This document shows positions 15,167-30,918 of a stretch of 30,918 nucleotides of DNA, in pieces. Under the pieces are notes generated by a model that did no database searches, was not told where the DNA came from, and saw nothing but the letters and a program-made list of their open reading frames with translations. Positions within the stretch are counted from its first letter, which is position 1. The number at the start of each line of letters is the position of its first letter. A program made the position numbers and the translations under genes. The stretch is from a virus (lineage: Duplodnaviria > Caudoviricetes), in IMG/VR virus record IMGVR_UViG_3300016476_001350, positions 1-30,918 of that record, one strand, 5' to 3'.

Positions 15167-16366
15167 TTATGAGAATGTTACGTTTGAAATAGCTACTTCA
15201 CCCAAGTAGTCACCGGCGTTACCGAGGCTGCTTGCAGTGTTAGTAAGTTCAGTGTAAGCATAACGTGTCATAAATCCAACTACTGGTTCGAATGTTGATG
15301 GATTAAGAACAACACCTGAACTCATTAGAGGAATGTATGGGCAGTAGAATGCAGCAGCGTCAGCTTCGCTTGAACCCTTGTAACCAACTAGAACTGCTGT
15401 ATCGTCAGCAGCGTAGCTGTCAACGTATACACGCATAGCACCGTTAAGAGTACCAACAAACTTAGTGTTAGTTGGAGCTTCAAAAGTACCTTCAGTTGTA
15501 CGAGCGAAAGCAGAAGTTGTTGCGCTCTGGAGAATTGTAAGAGCCTGTGGACTTACAACTGCCCAGTTACCAGCACCACGACGTGTGCGGCTAGCAATCT
15601 TGTTTGCTACGCGGTTTACGAGAACTGCAAGAGCAGCGTGCTCGTCACCAACGAATGTAGCTGTACCGCTTACTGAAGCCTGGTTGAAAGTCTCTTCAGT
15701 TGCAGCTAGAGCGCGTAGGCTGTATAGGATTTCCTGGTCAATTTCAGCAGTGATTTCCTGAGCAAGAGCAGCCATAATTTCTGCTTCGATGTCAAGACCA
15801 TGCATAGCCTGTGCGTCCTGAGCAGCTTCGAATGTCCAGCTTGCGCTGAGCTTACGAGTCTTGGCTTCTACAGCCTGCTTTAGGATCTGTACAGACATCT
15901 TACGACCTGGAACACCTTCCATAGAAGCTGTTGAACCAGCCTTGTCGTCTGTGCTGTTTACACCTGATGGTGTACCTGAGTAGCCTTGAGCAATCTTGAA
16001 TGGGCTGAGTGCTTCATCACCAGCTACAGTGTCAGTGCCTAGTGGGCTTGAAGCTGAGCTTGTGAAGTTCTCTGCGTAACGAACGCGGAGTGTATGAATC
16101 TGACCAACTGGTCCTGTCATTGGCTGTACACCAACGATTTCGTTGGCGATAACAGTTGGCATAACACGACGGATTACTGGAAGAATCACACGGTTTAGAG
16201 TGGCGATGTTGCCTGCGGCAGTTACGCCAGCGGATGCGCTTTCTGCGAGATACTTCTTTGTGTTCTCGAGAACGACACCCATTGAGCTGCGACGATTACC
16301 AGCAAGACCTTCAAGTAGGGCTTCCTTGGTTTCGTTCCAACGGCTCTCAATTAGGTTCTGAGTCAT
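15167..16366 (-). CDS. gp23: Major capsid protein (T4 gp23 family)
   Basis: RRVMPTVIANEIVGVQPMTGPVG, VEAKTRKLSA.WT.EAAQD..A.HG.D, AAFYCPYIPL, F.PVVGFMTRY. Candidate gp21 cleavage site LAE42/S. Confidence 0.97.
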   Translation of the reverse strand: MTQNLIESRWNETKEALLEGLAGNRRSSMGVVLENTKKYLAESASAGVTAAGNIATLNRVILPVIRRVMPTVIANEIVGVQPMTGPVGQIHTLRVRYAENFTSSASSPLGTDTVAGDEALSPFKIAQGYSGTPSGVNSTDDKAGSTASMEGVPGRKMSVQILKQAVEAKTRKLSASWTFEAAQDAQAMHGLDIEAEIMAALAQEITAEIDQEILYSLRALAATEETFNQASVSGTATFVGDEHAALAVLVNRVANKIASRTRRGAGNWAVVSPQALTILQSATTSAFARTTEGTFEAPTNTKFVGTLNGAMRVYVDSYAADDTAVLVGYKGSSEADAAAFYCPYIPLMSSGVVLNPSTFEPVVGFMTRYAYTELTNTASSLGNAGDYLGEVAISNVTFS

Positions 16367-19411: not shown

Positions 19412-21169
19412 TTAAGCCCCAGTTGGACCGGGTAAACCACCAGCACCAGCAGGAACACCAGCAGCGGGACTACCCATTGTTGGTTCAGCGCCAGGTACTC
19501 CGCCCTCTGCACCAGGTAATCCTTCAGCGCCTGGCAACCCTTCTTCACCTTCAAGTCCTTCAATTCCTTCAATATCACCTGAAATATCTCCTGGAGTAAT
19601 ACCAACATTGCGTAGATCAGTGCCTTCAACGTTTGGTGCTGCATCTGTACCAGCTTCTTCTTTCCACAACTTTTCGTTCTCTTTCATTTCAATCTCAGTA
19701 AGTCCAAGATATTTCTTGAGAACAAAACGTTTGCTTAAGTATGGAACTTCTGCTACTTGACCAAAATTACTAATACGACTAGCATCTAGATCAATTGATC
19801 TATAAGCAGCAAAGTTAAGAGGTTCACTTAATTTTAATTCAAATAAACTGTTGTCAACATTAAACCCACGCCATTGTAAGAATAATTTAAATTCACGATC
19901 TAAGTTACCTGCGATAAGTGTTTGCAATCCTTTGCAGTAGTTGTTGAATCTATTTTCTTGTATAAGTGCTGTAGTAACTTTGCCATCTGTGTAGGCCATA
20001 GTACCGTCGTCAGAACCAGTAGGCAAGTAGCTACTAGGGATCCTAAGACCTCTAAGCAACTTATTATTAAAATAACGTAAGTCATCAATTTGTCCTAAAT
20101 TTTCACCGCCTGGTAATGTCTCAACTTTAGAGCCACGACCTTCTGCTGTTTGCGGGAAGAAGTAGTCTTCATTGATGCTTAGCGGATTATACGTTGCATC
20201 CATAATGTTTTGTCCTCCACCAGTTAGTGTAGGTATTCTACGCTGATGAATTTCATTTTTAACACGTTCAACAAACTGCATAGCTAAGTGACTTGGCATA
20301 TTACCAGTATCAATATAAAATACTCTGCGTTCAGGAGCACGTTGAACTCTGTAAATTAAAATAGCATCTTCAAGCAATTCTTTTTGCTTATAGACTTTAA
20401 AAATGTTTTCTAATATGCTTATTCCAAAAGGCCAATTAGGATCTAAACCACTTGTTAAGCTAAGATGCATTATATTTTTTGCATCAATTGCACGTTCATT
20501 TTGTGCATTAGTAAAGCGTGAACCGCCAGTATATGGTTGATTAGGTAATGTATAACTGCCTGTTGGTCCACCAGTTTGCGGTGCTCTAATGTAGACATCG
20601 TTAGCTGTGTTAGTCGTAGCAGTCAAGTTCATAAAGTTAGGACTGAGATCTTTAATGAAATACATCTCAGGTTCTTTTCCATCGCTTTCGTTTACTACAA
20701 TCTTAGTAAGTTTAGCCATGTCAATCCAGTACAATTGAAATGTTTCTGGATCACGAATAAACACTTGATCACCATACTTTAACACGTTGCGTATCATTTT
20801 TGTGATACGTTTTTCCATTTCGTTTAAGTTGTACCAAGCTTTTAATTGCTCAGTAATGATATCATTTTCAGTTTTTGTAGGTTTATCTTTGTAATCAATA
20901 GTAAATGCAGTTTTAGTATCTTCTGTAGTTTGTGTACAAAAGTCTGCAATAATATCTAGAGCAGCATTAATTTCTGGATCCGTGTCCATGTTTTCGTACT
21001 GTGTATAACGTTCAATACGATTTGGATGTCCTGTATAAACATCTGGTAATGTACTGCCGTAATTCTTGTAACCAAATTCTGGCATAACGCCAGCATTATT
21101 ACTTCCACCACCTAAAGGGCTAAATCTTCCGTCTGTATTTGGTGTTCTAAAGTGCTTTTTATAAGCCAT
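19412..21169 (-). CDS. gp20: Portal vertex protein (T4 gp20 family)
   Basis: LLEDAILIYRVQRAPERRVFYIDTGNMP, EDYFFP..EGRGSKVETLPGGENLGQIDD.RYF..KL.RGL.IP.S. AATAAATA at 21188-21195. Confidence 0.97.
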   Translation of the reverse strand: MAYKKHFRTPNTDGRFSPLGGGSNNAGVMPEFGYKNYGSTLPDVYTGHPNRIERYTQYENMDTDPEINAALDIIADFCTQTTEDTKTAFTIDYKDKPTKTENDIITEQLKAWYNLNEMEKRITKMIRNVLKYGDQVFIRDPETFQLYWIDMAKLTKIVVNESDGKEPEMYFIKDLSPNFMNLTATTNTANDVYIRAPQTGGPTGSYTLPNQPYTGGSRFTNAQNERAIDAKNIMHLSLTSGLDPNWPFGISILENIFKVYKQKELLEDAILIYRVQRAPERRVFYIDTGNMPSHLAMQFVERVKNEIHQRRIPTLTGGGQNIMDATYNPLSINEDYFFPQTAEGRGSKVETLPGGENLGQIDDLRYFNNKLLRGLRIPSSYLPTGSDDGTMAYTDGKVTTALIQENRFNNYCKGLQTLIAGNLDREFKLFLQWRGFNVDNSLFELKLSEPLNFAAYRSIDLDASRISNFGQVAEVPYLSKRFVLKKYLGLTEIEMKENEKLWKEEAGTDAAPNVEGTDLRNVGITPGDISGDIEGIEGLEGEEGLPGAEGLPGAEGGVPGAEPTMGSPAAGVPAGAGGLPGPTGA

Positions 21170-24365: not shown

Positions 24366-24580
24366 CATTAGATAACGATCAGGTAATAAAATATCTTGAT
24401 GGTCTGGATAAAGAATCGTTATCACTCAAAGAAGATTTATTAAAAATGTGTTGGTATATGCGCGGTGGTTTATCTTATGATGATGCATTCTTACTTGATT
24501 ATCAAGAAAGAGAGTTGATATCTAATCTAATTAAAGAAAATATGGAAACAACCAAAAAGTCAGGATTGCCATTCTTCTAA
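24362..24580 (+). CDS. gp51-like baseplate assembly chaperone; possibly expressed as a -1 frameshift extension of the upstream gene
   Basis: WYMRGGLSYDDAFLL..QERELI resembles the gp51-type/GT-type helical extension. Only a TTG start, with no visible SD. Frame is open from 24335. Confidence 0.6.
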   Translation: MTLDNDQVIKYLDGLDKESLSLKEDLLKMCWYMRGGLSYDDAFLLDYQERELISNLIKENMETTKKSGLPFF

Positions 24581-25572
24581 TGTACAATATACATTGTCAA
24601 TGGCATCCACTCAAGAAGTGTATTGTTGGTAGAACTTATTATTCAAATTTCTTTGCCGATATTCCTGCTGCGGATGCACTAGCTAAAGTATGTGAAGAAA
24701 CAGAAGAAGATTTACAAAATCTCGTTGGCATCTTGCATCACTTTAACGTTGAAGTTATTCGCCCAAATTTAGATATCAATGATAAATTTATCAATTACGT
24801 CAATGTACCAAGACCTCCAATTGCACCTAGAGATTCACTGATAGTAATTGATAACAAAATTTATGAATTTGGGTTAGATCATCCAAGCATTAAAAAATGT
24901 ATTAATGACGACGTTAAATCATGTCCTTTTACTAGACATAGAAAAACAACTTTTAATCTAGCAACACCGTCCATAACTCAATTAGGAAAAGATATTTTGA
25001 TTGATACAAAATGTTTTACTAGTTGGGAAATACAATGGTTACAAAAACAATTACCAACACACAGAATAAACACGATATCAATTGGCGGTCACAATGACGG
25101 TAGTTTTATAATTTTAAAACCAGGTGTAATACTAAGTTTATCAAAGACAGTTGATTGGAAAACATTTTTCTCAAATTGGGATGTTATGGAAATTGATAGC
25201 GATGAAAATGAGTGGTTTACCGAGAGAAAAACTAATCAAGCTACGTGGTGGATACCTGGACAAGAAAATAACAACGCCCTAAAAGATTTTGTAAACAAGT
25301 GGTTAAATGATTGGGTAGGAAATATATCAGAAACAGTATTCAGTATCAATGCATTAATCATAGATGAAAAACATGTTGTTATCAATACACCAAGACAAGA
25401 TGTCATAAATTTTTTAAAGAAACACGATATAGAAGCAATTGTATGTCCTCAGAGACATCAATACTTTTGGGATAACGGAATACATTGCATGACACTTGAT
25501 TTATATCGAGAAGGAGAATTATTTGATCTTTTTCCAACTCGTGAAACACCATTTATGTGTAATAGATATTAA
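24580..25572 (+). CDS. Amidinotransferase-family (pentein) enzyme
   Basis: W.PLKKCIVGR, ETEEDL..L, PRD, GHNDG and C-terminal GIHCMTLD retain the Asp/His/Cys catalytic pattern of glycine/inosamine amidinotransferases. TAATG overlap with the upstream ORF. Confidence 0.8.
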   Translation: MYNIHCQWHPLKKCIVGRTYYSNFFADIPAADALAKVCEETEEDLQNLVGILHHFNVEVIRPNLDINDKFINYVNVPRPPIAPRDSLIVIDNKIYEFGLDHPSIKKCINDDVKSCPFTRHRKTTFNLATPSITQLGKDILIDTKCFTSWEIQWLQKQLPTHRINTISIGGHNDGSFIILKPGVILSLSKTVDWKTFFSNWDVMEIDSDENEWFTERKTNQATWWIPGQENNNALKDFVNKWLNDWVGNISETVFSINALIIDEKHVVINTPRQDVINFLKKHDIEAIVCPQRHQYFWDNGIHCMTLDLYREGELFDLFPTRETPFMCNRY

Positions 25573-26170: not shown

Positions 26171-27238
26171 TTATGTCAATTTTTTCTTACAGTTGTCAAA
26201 GTGATAGCGCAACATATTTCCTCTTCCGCCAGTTTTTTTGCAATGAGGACAAGTAACAGTTGACATTTTTTTGCCTTTGGCTGATTGAGACATGCGCTTT
26301 CGAGTCTCCTCAGATCGTTTAAGTCCTCGAACAGAATCTCCGACATTTTTCTTCCACTGTTCTTTTTCTTCTTCAGTCATGTTATAATGACATGGTTTGC
26401 CGTACATAGCATTATCTTTACCAACTCTTTTTCCTTTGTTGGCTTTTGATATTTTTTCACGTACTTCTTTTGGCCTAGGTTTACCATATCCAGGATGATC
26501 TTCGCCACTATAATGAAACGCTTCTGATAGTTTTTTCTTAATTAACGCGGCTTTCTCAAGCCCATATACTTCCTCAAAAGTCTTGCCTTTATTAAATGGT
26601 TCAACACCGTGCATTGGGTTGTTTTCTCCTACAAAATGGTCAGCTATCCATTGCTCATATTCTTTAGGAGTTTTGCACTTATTTTTCCATTGGTTTTTTT
26701 GGAGATTGTTTTCTAGCCAATCATTGAGTTCGTGACTTGATAGTTTGTGCATCCAATGTGTTTTTCCATCAGCGTACATTTCAAGCATCTTTTTTTGTAT
26801 GCGTAATCGGGTTTCTTCACTGTGTTCAGCAGGCGGAAGAAACTTAACGCTGTTAATTGCTTTGTTAAAATATTTTCGCTGGCCAGACGGAAGCAAAGTT
26901 CTAAGAACGTCTTCAGTAATCTGACGTTGCACTTCAGCGTAATGCAACGATCCTTTTGATTTGTGGAGAGTCAATATTTCAAACTTATAGTTTGCTTTGC
27001 CTTTCACAGCAATAGCTTCGTTTAATTCAGTTGAAGATCCAGTGTATTCACGCCAGTCAGATTCAGACCGAACATGCTTTTTATTTTTTCGATTTTTAAT
27101 TACTTTACGGCGAAGTTTTGTAAATTGCTTCTTGCCGATATACTCTCGCCCAGAATCTAACTCTGTAATGCGATATATAAATCCATACCATTCAGCAGGA
27201 TTAAATTCGTTTTGATATTCCCAATGACCAAGGTCCAT
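26171..27238 (-). CDS. GIY-YIG endonuclease with NUMOD3 repeats and C-terminal zinc-finger-like motif (Seg-like)
   Basis: GFIY..(10)..YIG, WREYTGSS, F.FEIL. NUMOD3-like HSEETRLRI, RPKEVREKISKANKGK, RSEETRKRMSQSAKGK. CPHC...HFDNC at the C-terminus. Confidence 0.85.
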   Translation of the reverse strand: MDLGHWEYQNEFNPAEWYGFIYRITELDSGREYIGKKQFTKLRRKVIKNRKNKKHVRSESDWREYTGSSTELNEAIAVKGKANYKFEILTLHKSKGSLHYAEVQRQITEDVLRTLLPSGQRKYFNKAINSVKFLPPAEHSEETRLRIQKKMLEMYADGKTHWMHKLSSHELNDWLENNLQKNQWKNKCKTPKEYEQWIADHFVGENNPMHGVEPFNKGKTFEEVYGLEKAALIKKKLSEAFHYSGEDHPGYGKPRPKEVREKISKANKGKRVGKDNAMYGKPCHYNMTEEEKEQWKKNVGDSVRGLKRSEETRKRMSQSAKGKKMSTVTCPHCKKTGGRGNMLRYHFDNCKKKLT

Positions 27239-27287: not shown

Positions 27288-27461
27288 TTAGTCTTTTCTT
27301 TCTTCGTTGTAGACGTCTTCTAGCTTAGAAACAACATTTCCTAATTCGTCAATCAAATTAGAATATTGATCAACATTATCGCTGTTAAGTCGATCATGTA
27401 GGTTAGTCTGCAAATCGTCAATCTTTGAAAGTATACCTTGTAATCTCTCTAATCTGTTCAT
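27288..27461 (-). CDS. Hypothetical 57-aa acidic helical protein (not in the ORF track)
   Basis: Manual translation MNRLERLQGILSKIDDLQTNLHDRLNSDNVDQYSNLIDELGNVVSKLEDVYNEERKD*. Fills the gap and is co-oriented with its neighbours. Confidence 0.65.
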   Translation of the reverse strand: MNRLERLQGILSKIDDLQTNLHDRLNSDNVDQYSNLIDELGNVVSKLEDVYNEERKD

Positions 27462-27478
27462 TTCTTTTGGATTTCTCT

Positions 27479-27598
27479 TTATTTGGCAATTTGCTTCTTT
27501 ACTTGATTGATAAACTCCATGGCTTTATCTGTTGGCATATCATCAACGTCTATATAAAATTGCTTTTTGCCATCTGGCAGTTTAGTAACTTTTACCAT
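27479..27598 (-). CDS. 39-aa mini-protein resembling the portal clip segment
   Basis: MVKVTKLPDGKKQFYIDVDDMPTDKAMEFINQVKKQIAK*. The ATG is 1 nt after the upstream stop, with an AAGGA SD. 12/24 identity to portal F284-I307. Confidence 0.65.
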   Translation of the reverse strand: MVKVTKLPDGKKQFYIDVDDMPTDKAMEFINQVKKQIAK

Positions 27599-27599
27599 T

Positions 27600-27791
27600 T
27601 TATTCCTTCTTTGCGCTAAGAGCATTCTTAGCTTCTGTAATTTCCTTGCGACGTGTAGCAGCAAGCTTGCGGATCTCGTTTAGTGCCTTACGGGCACGAC
27701 CGGCAGCAGCTTTTACACCTTTTTCAGAGAACTTTGCATTCTCTTCTACATATACATTTAGCTGATTTAATAATTCGTTATGCGTATTCAT
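27600..27791 (-). CDS. Histone H1-like (Hc1-family) small basic protein
   Basis: EKGVKAAAGRARKAL.EI.KL...RRKEI matches the Hc1 N-terminal G.KAA..RARK motif. Confidence 0.7.
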   Translation of the reverse strand: MNTHNELLNQLNVYVEENAKFSEKGVKAAAGRARKALNEIRKLAATRRKEITEAKNALSAKKE

Positions 27792-28753
27792 ATATTTTTT
27801 TCCTTTTTAATTTCATTTTCAATCCAATAGTATAACGTTTTCATACCAGTTTCTAAAGATATTTTAGGTTGCCAACCAGTTAATTTTTTAATTAACGTGT
27901 TATCACTAGTTCTAGCGTTAACACCAATTGGGCCTAATTCATATTCAATTTCAATATTTTTGTTGCTTATATTAATTAATAATTTAGTTAAATCATTAAT
28001 TGATACATAGTTTTCGTTACCAACATTAACTGGTGTACAAACATTAAATTCTATAACTTTATCTAAAGCATCTAAAAAATCAGAGATAAACAGGAAACTT
28101 CGTATTTGTTTACCGTCACCCCAAATTTTTATTTTATTATTAGTGCTTTCTGCAATTTTTCGACATAATGCAGCAGGGCTTTTTTCTCTTCCTGTATTGT
28201 AATCGCAAAATGGTCCATAAACGTTGTGTATTCGAACTATTTTGTTATCCATATTATAATTATAATTAAAGCTTTGACACAACTTTTCCCCTGTTAGTTT
28301 TTCCCAACCATAACAACTATCAGGATTTGCGGGGTAAGCACTGTCCTCTGTTATCTTTAAATTGTCAATGTCTAATTGATTATGCTCTGGATAGACACAA
28401 GCACTACTTGCATATATTAAAGTTTGCTTAGAGTTTTTTAAAGATTGTAAAATATTAATAGTAATAGTTAAACTATTGCTCATAATATCAGCGTCATTCT
28501 CTTTGGTAAAGATGTAACCTGCTCCACCCATATCCGCAGCAAAATGATAAACTAAGTCCCAATTTTTATTTTTAACGTGTTCTTCAACGAACACCTTGTT
28601 GCGTAAATCCCCAACATAAAACTCGTCTGCTAGAGTATTATATTTTGATTTTCTAATATCAATACCGCACACGTAATCATTTATTAACTTATGTTTTCTA
28701 ATTAAATGATTTCCTATAAATCCTGAAGCTCCAAGCACTAATATTTTTCTCAT
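27788..28753 (-). CDS. NAD-dependent epimerase/dehydratase, GDP-mannose 3,5-epimerase-like SDR
   Basis: GASGFIG, AADMGGAGYI, YASSACVYP, YGWEK (YxxxK), GREKSPAALCRK, IWGDGKQ.RSF. Confidence 0.88.
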   Translation of the reverse strand: MRKILVLGASGFIGNHLIRKHKLINDYVCGIDIRKSKYNTLADEFYVGDLRNKVFVEEHVKNKNWDLVYHFAADMGGAGYIFTKENDADIMSNSLTITINILQSLKNSKQTLIYASSACVYPEHNQLDIDNLKITEDSAYPANPDSCYGWEKLTGEKLCQSFNYNYNMDNKIVRIHNVYGPFCDYNTGREKSPAALCRKIAESTNNKIKIWGDGKQIRSFLFISDFLDALDKVIEFNVCTPVNVGNENYVSINDLTKLLINISNKNIEIEYELGPIGVNARTSDNTLIKKLTGWQPKISLETGMKTLYYWIENEIKKEKNI

Positions 28754-30540
28754 GCTGGTTCTTTCATTTCAATATCGTTTGAATACATTGTAAATCCATT
28801 TTCTTTAACAACAGTAAGAATGTTGTTAACTCTGCTAGACAATTCATCTTTATGACTTACGAGGAAAATAGTTTTATTTCTTTCTCGGCTCATCTTTTTA
28901 AGTATAGCAATCGAAGATTCAACACCGCTAGTATCCATGCCGCTATCAATCATTTCATCAATAAACAATAGATTAATTGGTTGATATAGTCCTTCCCAAA
29001 CATCTCTAAATGCCCAACTTAAACTTAAAATAAGTCTGTTACGTTCACCGCGAGATAAGTTATCGAAATCTAAATCTCTGCCTAATTCTTCAATAGATAC
29101 AGATAAGTCGCTTTGAAATTTAACGTGATGTGGTAATCCAATTTGCTGTAAGTAATAATGTAATCTAGAATTTAGATAAGCAAGATTTTGATCAATAATA
29201 GTTTTACGGATAAAACTATCCTTATTTGTTAATAGTTTCAGCAGGAAATCTTGATGCTCCTTAACTTTTGTTAAAGCGTTCATATGTTCCCAACTGATTT
29301 CTTCGACTGCGGATATACGCATGTCAGCAATTTGTTCAATATATGGATCATCTTCTCCTAGCCTATGTTCTAACTGAGAAGTTAGTTTATCTATACTAGC
29401 ACGATGTTCCATGGCTTGTTCGATAGTATCGTAAAACACTTTTGGTGCTTTTCCAATATTGCCAATACTGGCGAGTATTTCTTCATACTCATCAGCTTGT
29501 GCTTGTAGTTTAACCATGTGCTTTTCGCTATCTTCTTTTTGCTTTAGTTTTCCAGTTAGGATTGTTTCCTGCTTTCCATCATGCAGTTTGCTACCACATG
29601 CAAAACATTTGTGATTCTGCAAGTCGGCAATTTCTTTTTGCAGCTTATCATATGCCTTTTCTTCTTTCGCAAAGTCTGCACGTAAGCTTTTAATCCACTT
29701 TTCTGCTTCTTGCTTGCGCTTTACTACGGTGTAGTACTCACTAAGTTTTTTATGATTTTCAATTTCAACTTCAACATCAATATCTTTTAAATCTTCTAAA
29801 GCTTGCACAAGCTTAGAGATGTCTTCTTCTCGCTTAGCTTCCCACAGACGTTGGCGCTTTTCAAGACTTTCAATTTGTTCTTGAATTTTTTTATTGCTGT
29901 CTTGTACAGCTTTAATTCTATATTCTTCTTCTGTAATAGAATCTTTTGTAAGTCTAATTAATTCCTTTAACTTTTCTGCTTTAGCAGACAATTGAGTAAT
30001 ACCTAGAAGCTGTTCAATAATTTCTCTTTGATCATTTGCTCTCATAGACAAAAATGGTTCAGTGTATGTGTTAAGAGCTAGAATGTGTTTGAACATTTCG
30101 TGACTCATACCCAGCAATTTTTCAATTTCTTTTTGAGTCTCTCTTGAATCACCTTGAGCATCATCATCTATTTCTTCAGCCGTTTTATCTTGTCCGTTGA
30201 TATAGAATTTAAGTACGTTAGGTTTTCTTCCTCGTTCAATTTTGTAATGATTGTTGTTGATCTCAAAGTCAACTGTAACTAACATATTTTTAGCGTTAGT
30301 TTTATTAATGAGATTTTCTTTTTTAATGTTAGTTAATGCCTGCCCATATAGGCCGTAACTCAAGGCGTTGATTATTGTAGTTTTTCCCGTGCCATTTCTG
30401 GAACCTGTGTCATCGCCACCCAGGTCTAGATTAGATCCTAACACTAGAGTTAACTGCTCTTGATCAAAATCAACGGCTTGAGTTTGGTTGCCTACACTCA
30501 TAAAATTACGAACTGTCAGTGTCTTAATTTTAAAGGTCAT
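28750..30540 (-). CDS. gp46: Recombination endonuclease ATPase subunit (gp46, SbcC/Rad50-like)
   Basis: NFMSVGN, Walker A NGTGKTT, coiled coil with CFAC zinc hook, signature LSRGE, Walker B LLFIDE, H-loop VSH. Confidence 0.95.
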   Translation of the reverse strand: MTFKIKTLTVRNFMSVGNQTQAVDFDQEQLTLVLGSNLDLGGDDTGSRNGTGKTTIINALSYGLYGQALTNIKKENLINKTNAKNMLVTVDFEINNNHYKIERGRKPNVLKFYINGQDKTAEEIDDDAQGDSRETQKEIEKLLGMSHEMFKHILALNTYTEPFLSMRANDQREIIEQLLGITQLSAKAEKLKELIRLTKDSITEEEYRIKAVQDSNKKIQEQIESLEKRQRLWEAKREEDISKLVQALEDLKDIDVEVEIENHKKLSEYYTVVKRKQEAEKWIKSLRADFAKEEKAYDKLQKEIADLQNHKCFACGSKLHDGKQETILTGKLKQKEDSEKHMVKLQAQADEYEEILASIGNIGKAPKVFYDTIEQAMEHRASIDKLTSQLEHRLGEDDPYIEQIADMRISAVEEISWEHMNALTKVKEHQDFLLKLLTNKDSFIRKTIIDQNLAYLNSRLHYYLQQIGLPHHVKFQSDLSVSIEELGRDLDFDNLSRGERNRLILSLSWAFRDVWEGLYQPINLLFIDEMIDSGMDTSGVESSIAILKKMSRERNKTIFLVSHKDELSSRVNNILTVVKENGFTMYSNDIEMKEPA

Positions 30541-30918
30541 TGTAAATGTCCATTAGTAATTTTTTATCAAATGTCCCGTTGTCTAAATTTGTTAATTGTT
30601 CTGATACAATTTGATCAATGCTTTCAAATTTTGTATCTGGGGTGTCTTCATATGAAGCTTCTAGGTTATTCTTGTCTTGAATAAGACTAATTTCTCTAAT
30701 ATCATAAGTCTTAGTAAATTCTTCTTTGATAAAGTTAGCCTCTTCAAAGCTGATATCAATATCTAAATTTACTCTCAGATACATTTTGCTTTTCATGATT
30801 TCATCTTTTCTGTCGATTAGGTCACTGAGTTTGATAGTTCTAAATTTTGGAGCATGTTCCCAGTTAATAAACTTAGGCTTGCCTCCCCATTCTAAGATCA
30901 TCATACCTCGGTCATCAT
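30530..30918 (-). CDS. gp47: Recombination endonuclease nuclease subunit (gp47, SbcD/Mre11-like), C-terminal part only
   Basis: Frame is open to the window edge (..DDRGMMILEW). Overlaps the gp46 start, in the usual gp47-gp46 order. Confidence 0.8.
   Translation of the reverse strand, partial: DDRGMMILEWGGKPKFINWEHAPKFRTIKLSDLIDRKDEIMKSKMYLRVNLDIDISFEEANFIKEEFTKTYDIREISLIQDKNNLEASYEDTPDTKFESIDQIVSEQLTNLDNGTFDKKLLMDIYNDL

Follow-up and report, generated by a model that had tools for sequence, protein, structure and literature searches.

The question raised by this locus is why a large aquatic T4-like phage should carry, in addition to an intact portal gene, a separate open reading frame (ORF) of 39 codons whose product resembles one segment of that portal. 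The window, i.e., the whole stretch of 30,918 nucleotides that was analysed, holds a T4-like head module plus, all on the same strand, genes for gp47, gp46, an epimerase, the histone-like protein Hc1, the mini-protein, a 57-aa product and a GIY-YIG endonuclease. The CheckV completeness of the 30.9-kb record is 9%, which implies a jumbo genome. The features to be compared are the following.

27479..27598, minus strand: mini-protein gene of the portal-clip type, 39 aa, ATG start
19412..21169, minus strand: intact T4-type portal gene, 585 aa (Pfam PF07230, E = 7e-106)
20249..20347, minus strand: portal segment matched by the mini-protein, residues 275-307 (end of the stem helix, clip β1 and α6)

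The ORF exists where the original prediction had placed it. The gapless match claimed there, with 12 of 24 residues identical between mini-protein residues 14-37 and portal residues 284-307 (nt 20249-20320), was borne out by alignment, and the basic pair just upstream of the aligned stretch was also found. A longer local alignment joins mini-protein residues 2-37 to portal residues 273-307. The Smith-Waterman score of the mini-protein against the portal is 74, a value that none of 20,000 shuffled sequences attained (maximum 56), and the match thereby passed the comparison with shuffled controls on which it had been staked; with all six frames of the window as target, none of 1,000 shuffles reached 74 (maximum 55). 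Placement on a T4-type portal independent of this genome is given by PF07230 (Portal_T4), which matches the mini-protein with an E-value of 1.9e-4 (20.8 bits, i.e., under the curated cut-off of 22.9) at just profile positions 207-232 of 433, and by the portal family PHROG 213 (E = 2.4e-4). The mini-protein is homologous to the clip β1-α6 segment; the full wing-stem-clip-crown fold of PF07230 portals (about 500 aa) is not present in its 39 residues. A 61-aa version with a TTG-extended start was ruled out, because the orthologs start at the ATG. At the DNA level 48 of 72 nucleotides are identical between the gene and the portal segment (16, 19 and 13 of 24 at codon positions 1, 2 and 3), and five of the ten degenerate codons for identical residues differ; the mini-protein gene is therefore not a fresh duplication.

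In T4 the portal protein gp20 has its clip domain at residues 279-358 (PMC4493910). Mini-protein residues 3-34 align to gp20 275-305, and by extension of this alignment residues 17-39 correspond to gp20 288-310; the mini-protein thus covers the span of a 24-aa synthetic peptide, gp20 288-311, which is reported to bind the terminase gp17 and to inhibit packaging (PMC4493910). The profile of the family described below aligns to gp20 278-311 (E about 1e-6), which agrees with the earlier assignment of the segment to the strand-helix (β1-α6) of the gp20 clip. According to the same source, N291, M292, R295 and K296 of gp20 are terminase contacts required for packaging, the clip sheet is formed by strands of two adjacent subunits, and the portal assembles on the inner membrane (PMC4493910), which supports the clip as the terminase docking site in T4; the neck protein gp13 docks on the clip later (PMC9958956). 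That portals act as immune triggers, also part of the original prediction, is supported in the literature for Avs4 and Avs11 (PMC13581612; 10.64898/2026.08.25.746987) and for RAZR, which reads ring geometry (PMC13017515). For Avs sensors, recognition of entire folds via broad interfaces is described (PMC13581612).

The AlphaFold2 model of the mini-protein, based on a 62-row alignment, has strands at residues 2-6 and 12-16 and a helix at residues 23-38 (mean pLDDT 94), and an equal layout was predicted for a second family member (pLDDT 75). The first strand and the turn stand where the portal has the end of its stem helix. An N-terminal turn of the pattern D/E/N/S-G/D/N occurs in 55 of the 121 family members, at a place where portals have P-E. 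Judging from the models, the N-terminal strand and turn may be an adaptation to folding alone. A Foldseek search of viral and PDB libraries yielded no match at E ≤ 0.001, a result that carries little meaning for so small a model.

The surroundings of the gene are as follows.

27788..30904, minus strand: gp47 (SbcD-like and truncated at the window end), gp46 (SbcC-like) and an NAD-dependent epimerase, all upstream of the mini-protein gene
27600..27791, minus strand: Hc1 histone-like gene (Pfam PF07432, E = 9e-12), the conserved gene that anchors a variable insertion site on its upstream side
27604-27608, minus strand: Shine-Dalgarno (SD)-like AAGGA within the final Hc1 codons, 5 nt ahead of the mini-protein ATG
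27456..27598: module of 143 nt absent from one relative, which has 14 nt in its place
27288..27461, minus strand: 57-aa ORF downstream of the mini-protein gene, no significant family, retained in a relative without the mini-protein
26171..27238, minus strand: homing endonuclease of the GIY-YIG type (SegE-like) that has NUMOD3 motifs and lies 240 nt downstream of the mini-protein gene

The Hc1 stop and the mini-protein start are 1 nt apart. The mini-protein gene had been credited with its own SD; AAGGA is indeed present, but it lies inside the end of Hc1, and a relative (locus L005) has the identical SD-stop-ATG layout before a different gene, so the SD is a feature of the site and does not count as support for the mini-protein ORF. 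From the tight same-strand packing we infer a common transcription unit with gp47 and gp46. The true portal lies 6.3 kb from the mini-protein gene, which sits among gp46, the epimerase and Hc1, away from the head module with its genes for scaffold, protease and capsid.

Comparison with relatives shows that the end of Hc1 is a variable insertion site, followed by the mini-protein gene, another allele of it or unrelated genes. One contig of sequencing run X2 has the allele of the window, apart from a single synonymous change, and a low-depth contig of the same run (depth 2.9) has, after the first five codons, an allele of the P0020 type (assigned by eye from a loose end). At about 90% identity, a contig of run X4 joins position 27455 to 27599, so that exactly the mini-protein gene is missing, and in another contig the whole block is skipped. 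In contigs of runs X6, X7 and X8 and at the loci L004 and L005, Hc1 is followed by other sequence, the portal of L004 being 95% identical to that of the window. The gene is thus small, accessory and variable, as is expected of an anti-defence decoy.

Several further observations concern the window as such. The NAD-dependent epimerase gene (27788-28753) is itself a presence/absence module, as X4 and X5 contigs join 27791 to 28759. The homing endonuclease SegB is reported to amplify nearby anti-defence loci (PMC13096335); a tie between the SegE-like endonuclease 240 nt from the mini-protein gene and amplification of the SegB type is hypothetical. On the plus strand, positions 24580-25572 encode a 330-aa ORF that matches phrog_25854 and by eye resembles an amidinotransferase. 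The C-terminal tail of the portal (19412-19600) is rich in Gly and Pro and has short repeats. The major capsid protein (15167-16366) matches the small PHROG families 14392, 17311, 13936 and 12830 at short conserved segments, which suggests that stand-alone families of capsid fragments may exist too. A comparison of 10 proteins with all frames of the window revealed no other virion-fragment gene.

Stand-alone ORFs with the clip motif were retrieved by degenerate DNA scans of IMG/VR at 3 of 119, 4 of 120, 2 of 2 and 6 of 61 loci, and in metagenomes at 1 of 1; these loci overlap, the last four scans yielding eight distinct cores, and the remaining IMG/VR loci were mostly portals. A profile built from four sequences found seven proteins of 35-46 aa, among them a 39-aa ortholog (P0004) with equal start and length and 31 of 39 residues identical (79%). 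With the seven-sequence profile, 1.84 billion representatives yielded 331 matches at E ≤ 1e-3 (the best 150 of the 331 include true portals), and 117 short proteins were obtained with a profile of 62 sequences. After longer proteins, portals and broken portals had been dropped from the 235 proteins retrieved, 121 were left that are at most 75 aa long, contain the motif and lack the portal-flank motifs, which sets the family size at 121 or more. These proteins measure 34-75 aa (median 50 aa), 119 of them start with M, nearly all are singletons at 90% identity, and many family members are annotated with the PF07230 label. The profile search of small phage ORFs that had been proposed as a check of the peptide thus returned at least 121 stand-alone proteins, and the objection foreseen at the outset, that the ORF is a decayed fragment, largely fails against a conserved family with an intact 79% ortholog.

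In a control with 12 diverse portals, the only recurring small PHROG families were 12349 (8 of 12) and 23805 (7 of 12), both at the clip segment, while nine other families of unknown function had one match each; according to this control, excision among portal parts is specific to the clip segment, as far as profile matches can tell. In the non-portal family proteins the best PF07230 stretch is centred on about positions 203-236 of 433. Second codon positions are better conserved than third ones in the window pair and also in the pair formed by the mini-protein of contig G020 and its own portal (17, 21 and 10 of 24). Taken together, these sequences appear to form a family of portal-clip mini-proteins that is large, under selection and seemingly not yet described.

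Genomic context, available for 11 family members, places those with known context on T4-like phage contigs, though at varying positions, e.g., after regA (L211), beside a groES-like gene (L435, labelled by eye) or among small accessory genes (L499). Among the longer forms there are tandem copies and compact clip-like units in doubled form; others end in a membrane tail, one is fused to MazG and two are fused to pieces of the Gp23 capsid protein. In the latter (P0042 and P0052; by eye likewise P0087) the clip motif is joined to short pieces of the major capsid protein (Pfam Gp23), and the piece in P0052 presumably may correspond to the Gol region. A C-terminal hydrophobic helix marks the membrane-tailed L431 (3832-4077), P0153, P0179 and P0196; among these four, L531 (1498-1758) and P0106, two have an N-terminal leader that by eye is twin-arginine-like. 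Longer members that apparently keep further clip strands, several of them doubled, are P0009, P0010, P0014, P0022, P0029, P0033 and P0110, and likewise L169 (2989-3270) and L434 (3818-4132). The matches also include short broken portals (e.g., P0173 and P0182) and portals interrupted a short way behind the clip motif by inteins, some of which contain HNH domains (P0037, P0072, P0080, P0115 and P0128).

Other searches show how patchy the occurrence is. A protein search with the single sequence missed the family, its one candidate being the mini-protein itself, and the one locus from the corresponding locus search was rejected as a chance match inside a sigma-like gene. Regarding cultured phages, the 60 matches listed from a tblastn search (1,138 records, one place each) were portals, two of them labelled 'hypothetical' or unannotated, and two further tblastn searches, in which extra places in WPEC3 were left out, yielded no cultured phage with a mini-protein among the matches listed. 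The 'hypothetical' match in RsoM2USA proved to be its portal. None of the 80 loci kept from a locus search with the mini-protein alignment was stand-alone, and the ESM Atlas gave no usable match to the mini-protein. GTDB genomes, scanned with narrow patterns, gave no matches and then 31 (23 portals and eight chance matches), none of them a mini-protein; a bacterial origin is weakly excluded. Of 50 large contigs, 48 have a portal match, one is a known carrier and one (G020) additionally has a new mini-protein; 50 further large contigs gave 44 portals and no mini-protein. Overall, one mini-protein was newly found in 99 contigs searched without prior knowledge. Among three GenBank jumbo records, LR756511 has both portal and mini-protein. 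In G020 and G033 (91-92% complete) a T4-type large terminase was not found; the gene may have diverged, be split or lie outside the contig.

The residues kept and changed bear on what the mini-protein may bind. Across the 121 mini-proteins, conservation of F, D, V and G in the strand is 90-99%, and the equivalent of M292 is retained in 79%. The equivalent of P293 is found in 44% of the mini-proteins versus 98% of 122 portal cores; at positions 291, 295 and 296 the charge averages -1.13 versus -0.44, in a comparison biased both ways because the profile seeds carried D and the portal panel was enriched for D portals. The 64% frequency of D at the N291 position in mini-proteins is inflated, since all profile seeds had D; scans that allowed either residue, the patterns of which favour particular portal groups, found D there in 6 of 8 mini-proteins and in none of 58 portal cores. 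True portals with D at this position occur at 113 of the 119 loci of one IMG/VR scan and account for 31% of the D-enriched panel, so D need not abolish terminase binding. The mini-protein of the window has D20, M21, D24 and K25 at positions 291, 292, 295 and 296, two of the four being as in T4; these positions vary among true portals too.

The original prediction also held that the mini-protein copies the phage's own portal. With portals sorted into groups A-F (motif labels made in this analysis), mini-proteins score best against their own portal group in all three same-contig pairs. Among six contexts inferred by BLAST, two match the own group (L433 and L211), one does so partly (L434) and three do not (L431, L432 and L435); L226 and L169 were set aside as ambiguous. 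A low-power tree of 27 columns, with 35 of 98 mini-proteins and 35 portal cores, gave seven changes and did not reject a single origin (p-AU 0.405); it places the window subgroup nearer to portal group D than to its own group A, which counts against simple self-copying. The claim therefore holds for the best score but not for the tree, nor for the N-terminal hairpin, which is specific to the family and absent from portals.

The reading that we tentatively prefer, at somewhat short of an even chance, is that the mini-protein acts as a decoy that engages a portal-sensing protein of the host. The free-standing clip strand-helix would occupy the sensor before or during portal synthesis, and the added N-terminal strand, as modelled, would close a β-hairpin that replaces the sheet neighbours of the portal ring. 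Made together with the gp47, gp46 and Hc1 genes, the mini-protein would appear ahead of the late head genes. The strand-loop motif that is kept would be the part a sensor reads, the rest of the portal, probably needed to switch the sensor on, is lacking, and the acidic changes at the terminase contacts would spare the phage's own packaging motor. The decoy is preferred because of the accessory variation at the hotspot and the position outside the head genes, because the exposed strand-loop is retained and the terminase contacts are eroded, and because multivalent and capsid-fused forms occur, the tandem copies and Gp23 fusions fitting a multivalent bait. Several points speak against it: given the broad interfaces read by Avs, 39 residues may bind too weakly or might even activate (PMC13581612), a monomer offers no ring geometry of the kind that RAZR reads (PMC13017515), the sole experimental precedent, the T4 peptide 288-311, points to the terminase (PMC4493910), D at the N291 position is found in true portals too, and the mini-proteins are patchy, as the single new one in 99 contigs shows.

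The alternative that survives best, which we consider rather unlikely, is that the partner of the mini-protein is the large terminase or the neck protein gp13, an interaction that would idle the phage's own motor until proheads are ready, hide the motor from the terminase-sensing Avs1-3 or block packaging in co-infecting T4-like phages. Its residues 17-39 correspond to gp20 288-310, nearly the whole of the inhibitory gp17-binding peptide (PMC4493910), gp13 also docks on the clip (PMC9958956), and natural terminase inhibitors such as Gpi exist (10.1101/2024.04.22.590561). The retention of the M292 equivalent fits this explanation, but the equivalents of N291 and R295 are both D in the window protein and the family is shifted towards acidic residues. 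The best match to the own portal group in the three same-contig pairs can be taken in its favour as well; that very likeness, however, would make a weapon self-toxic, and a needed packaging regulator should not be missing from near relatives.

Still less probable is binding to the portal itself, in which the strand would displace the clip strand of a neighbour, cap free subunits and delay ring assembly or shield the portal from sensors. Such an exchange would suit a clip sheet to which two adjacent subunits contribute strands (PMC4493910) and a family whose strand motif is better conserved than any other part, and the membrane-tailed members would fit the assembly of the T4 portal on the inner membrane. 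The predicted hairpin, however, already covers one strand edge, a dominant-negative cap would be costly, and the gene is dispensable in relatives. Other explanations are, even jointly, very unlikely. Least likely of all is that the ORFs are short-lived, functionless portal scraps caught at a recombination hotspot, the clip segment merely being the easiest to detect, for although nearly all members are singletons, the site adjoins a homing endonuclease and supplies the SD, and some short matches are plainly broken portals, this debris would have to show an N-terminal turn common to 55 of 121 members and absent from portals, clean starts and stops with an intact 79% ortholog, second codon positions more conserved than third ones, tandem and fused architectures, and no recurring small PHROG families from the other conserved portal segments.

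Extended to the family, the decoy reading becomes a proposal that we hold more tentatively still: T4-like phages may repeatedly excise the immune-visible tip of the portal, stabilise it as a mini-fold of 35-50 residues, detune it from the terminase and deploy it, sometimes doubled, membrane-anchored or capsid-fused, as a self-derived decoy against bacterial pattern-recognition receptors. Several bacterial immune sensors are triggered by portals, which are conserved and cannot readily escape by mutation. If the decoy reading is true, it would represent a new route of counter-defence in which the bait is built from the trigger itself, and the conserved face would map what the sensors read. If the mini-protein binds the terminase instead, it would be a naturally occurring form of the inhibitory peptide already described, and a tool for studying the portal-terminase interface, which is still unsolved. 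In either case such genes are easily mis-annotated as 'portal'.

Regarding known systems, the query P0002 matched no family at E ≤ 0.1 in either PADLOC or NCBIfam, and no paper on natural stand-alone portal-clip genes was found among those that a literature search listed. The model for binding to the terminase is Gpi of PLE, a small natural TerL-binding blocker of ICP1 packaging (10.1101/2024.04.22.590561); unlike the mini-protein, it is encoded by a satellite against its helper, and the abstract that describes it states no homology to portals. PHROG families 12349 and 23805 (97 and 72 columns, function unknown) contain the same motif and match 35 and 25 of 62 family members, respectively, at E ≤ 0.01; compared at the profile level, both are unannotated and longer than the 39-aa form. 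The portal-sensing defences Avs4, Avs11 and RAZR represent the selective pressure proposed for the mini-protein. DSAD1 is a phage protein that competes with the tail tube, the trigger of DSR2, and occupies the trigger-binding site without activation; it is not known to be copied from a structural gene of its own phage. Among known anti-Avs proteins, those described for EVADES (the ligase ORF55 and ORF83) are unrelated enzymes and not trigger fragments. The closest relation is to the clip of T4 gp20 (residues 279-358; PF07230; PDB 3JA7 and 6UZC) and its peptide 288-311, as the mini-protein is the same sequence element with boundaries nearly equal to those of the inhibitory peptide; unlike gp20, it is a separate natural gene outside the head module, without wing, stem or crown, and with an added N-terminal strand and acidic residues at the N291 and R295 positions.
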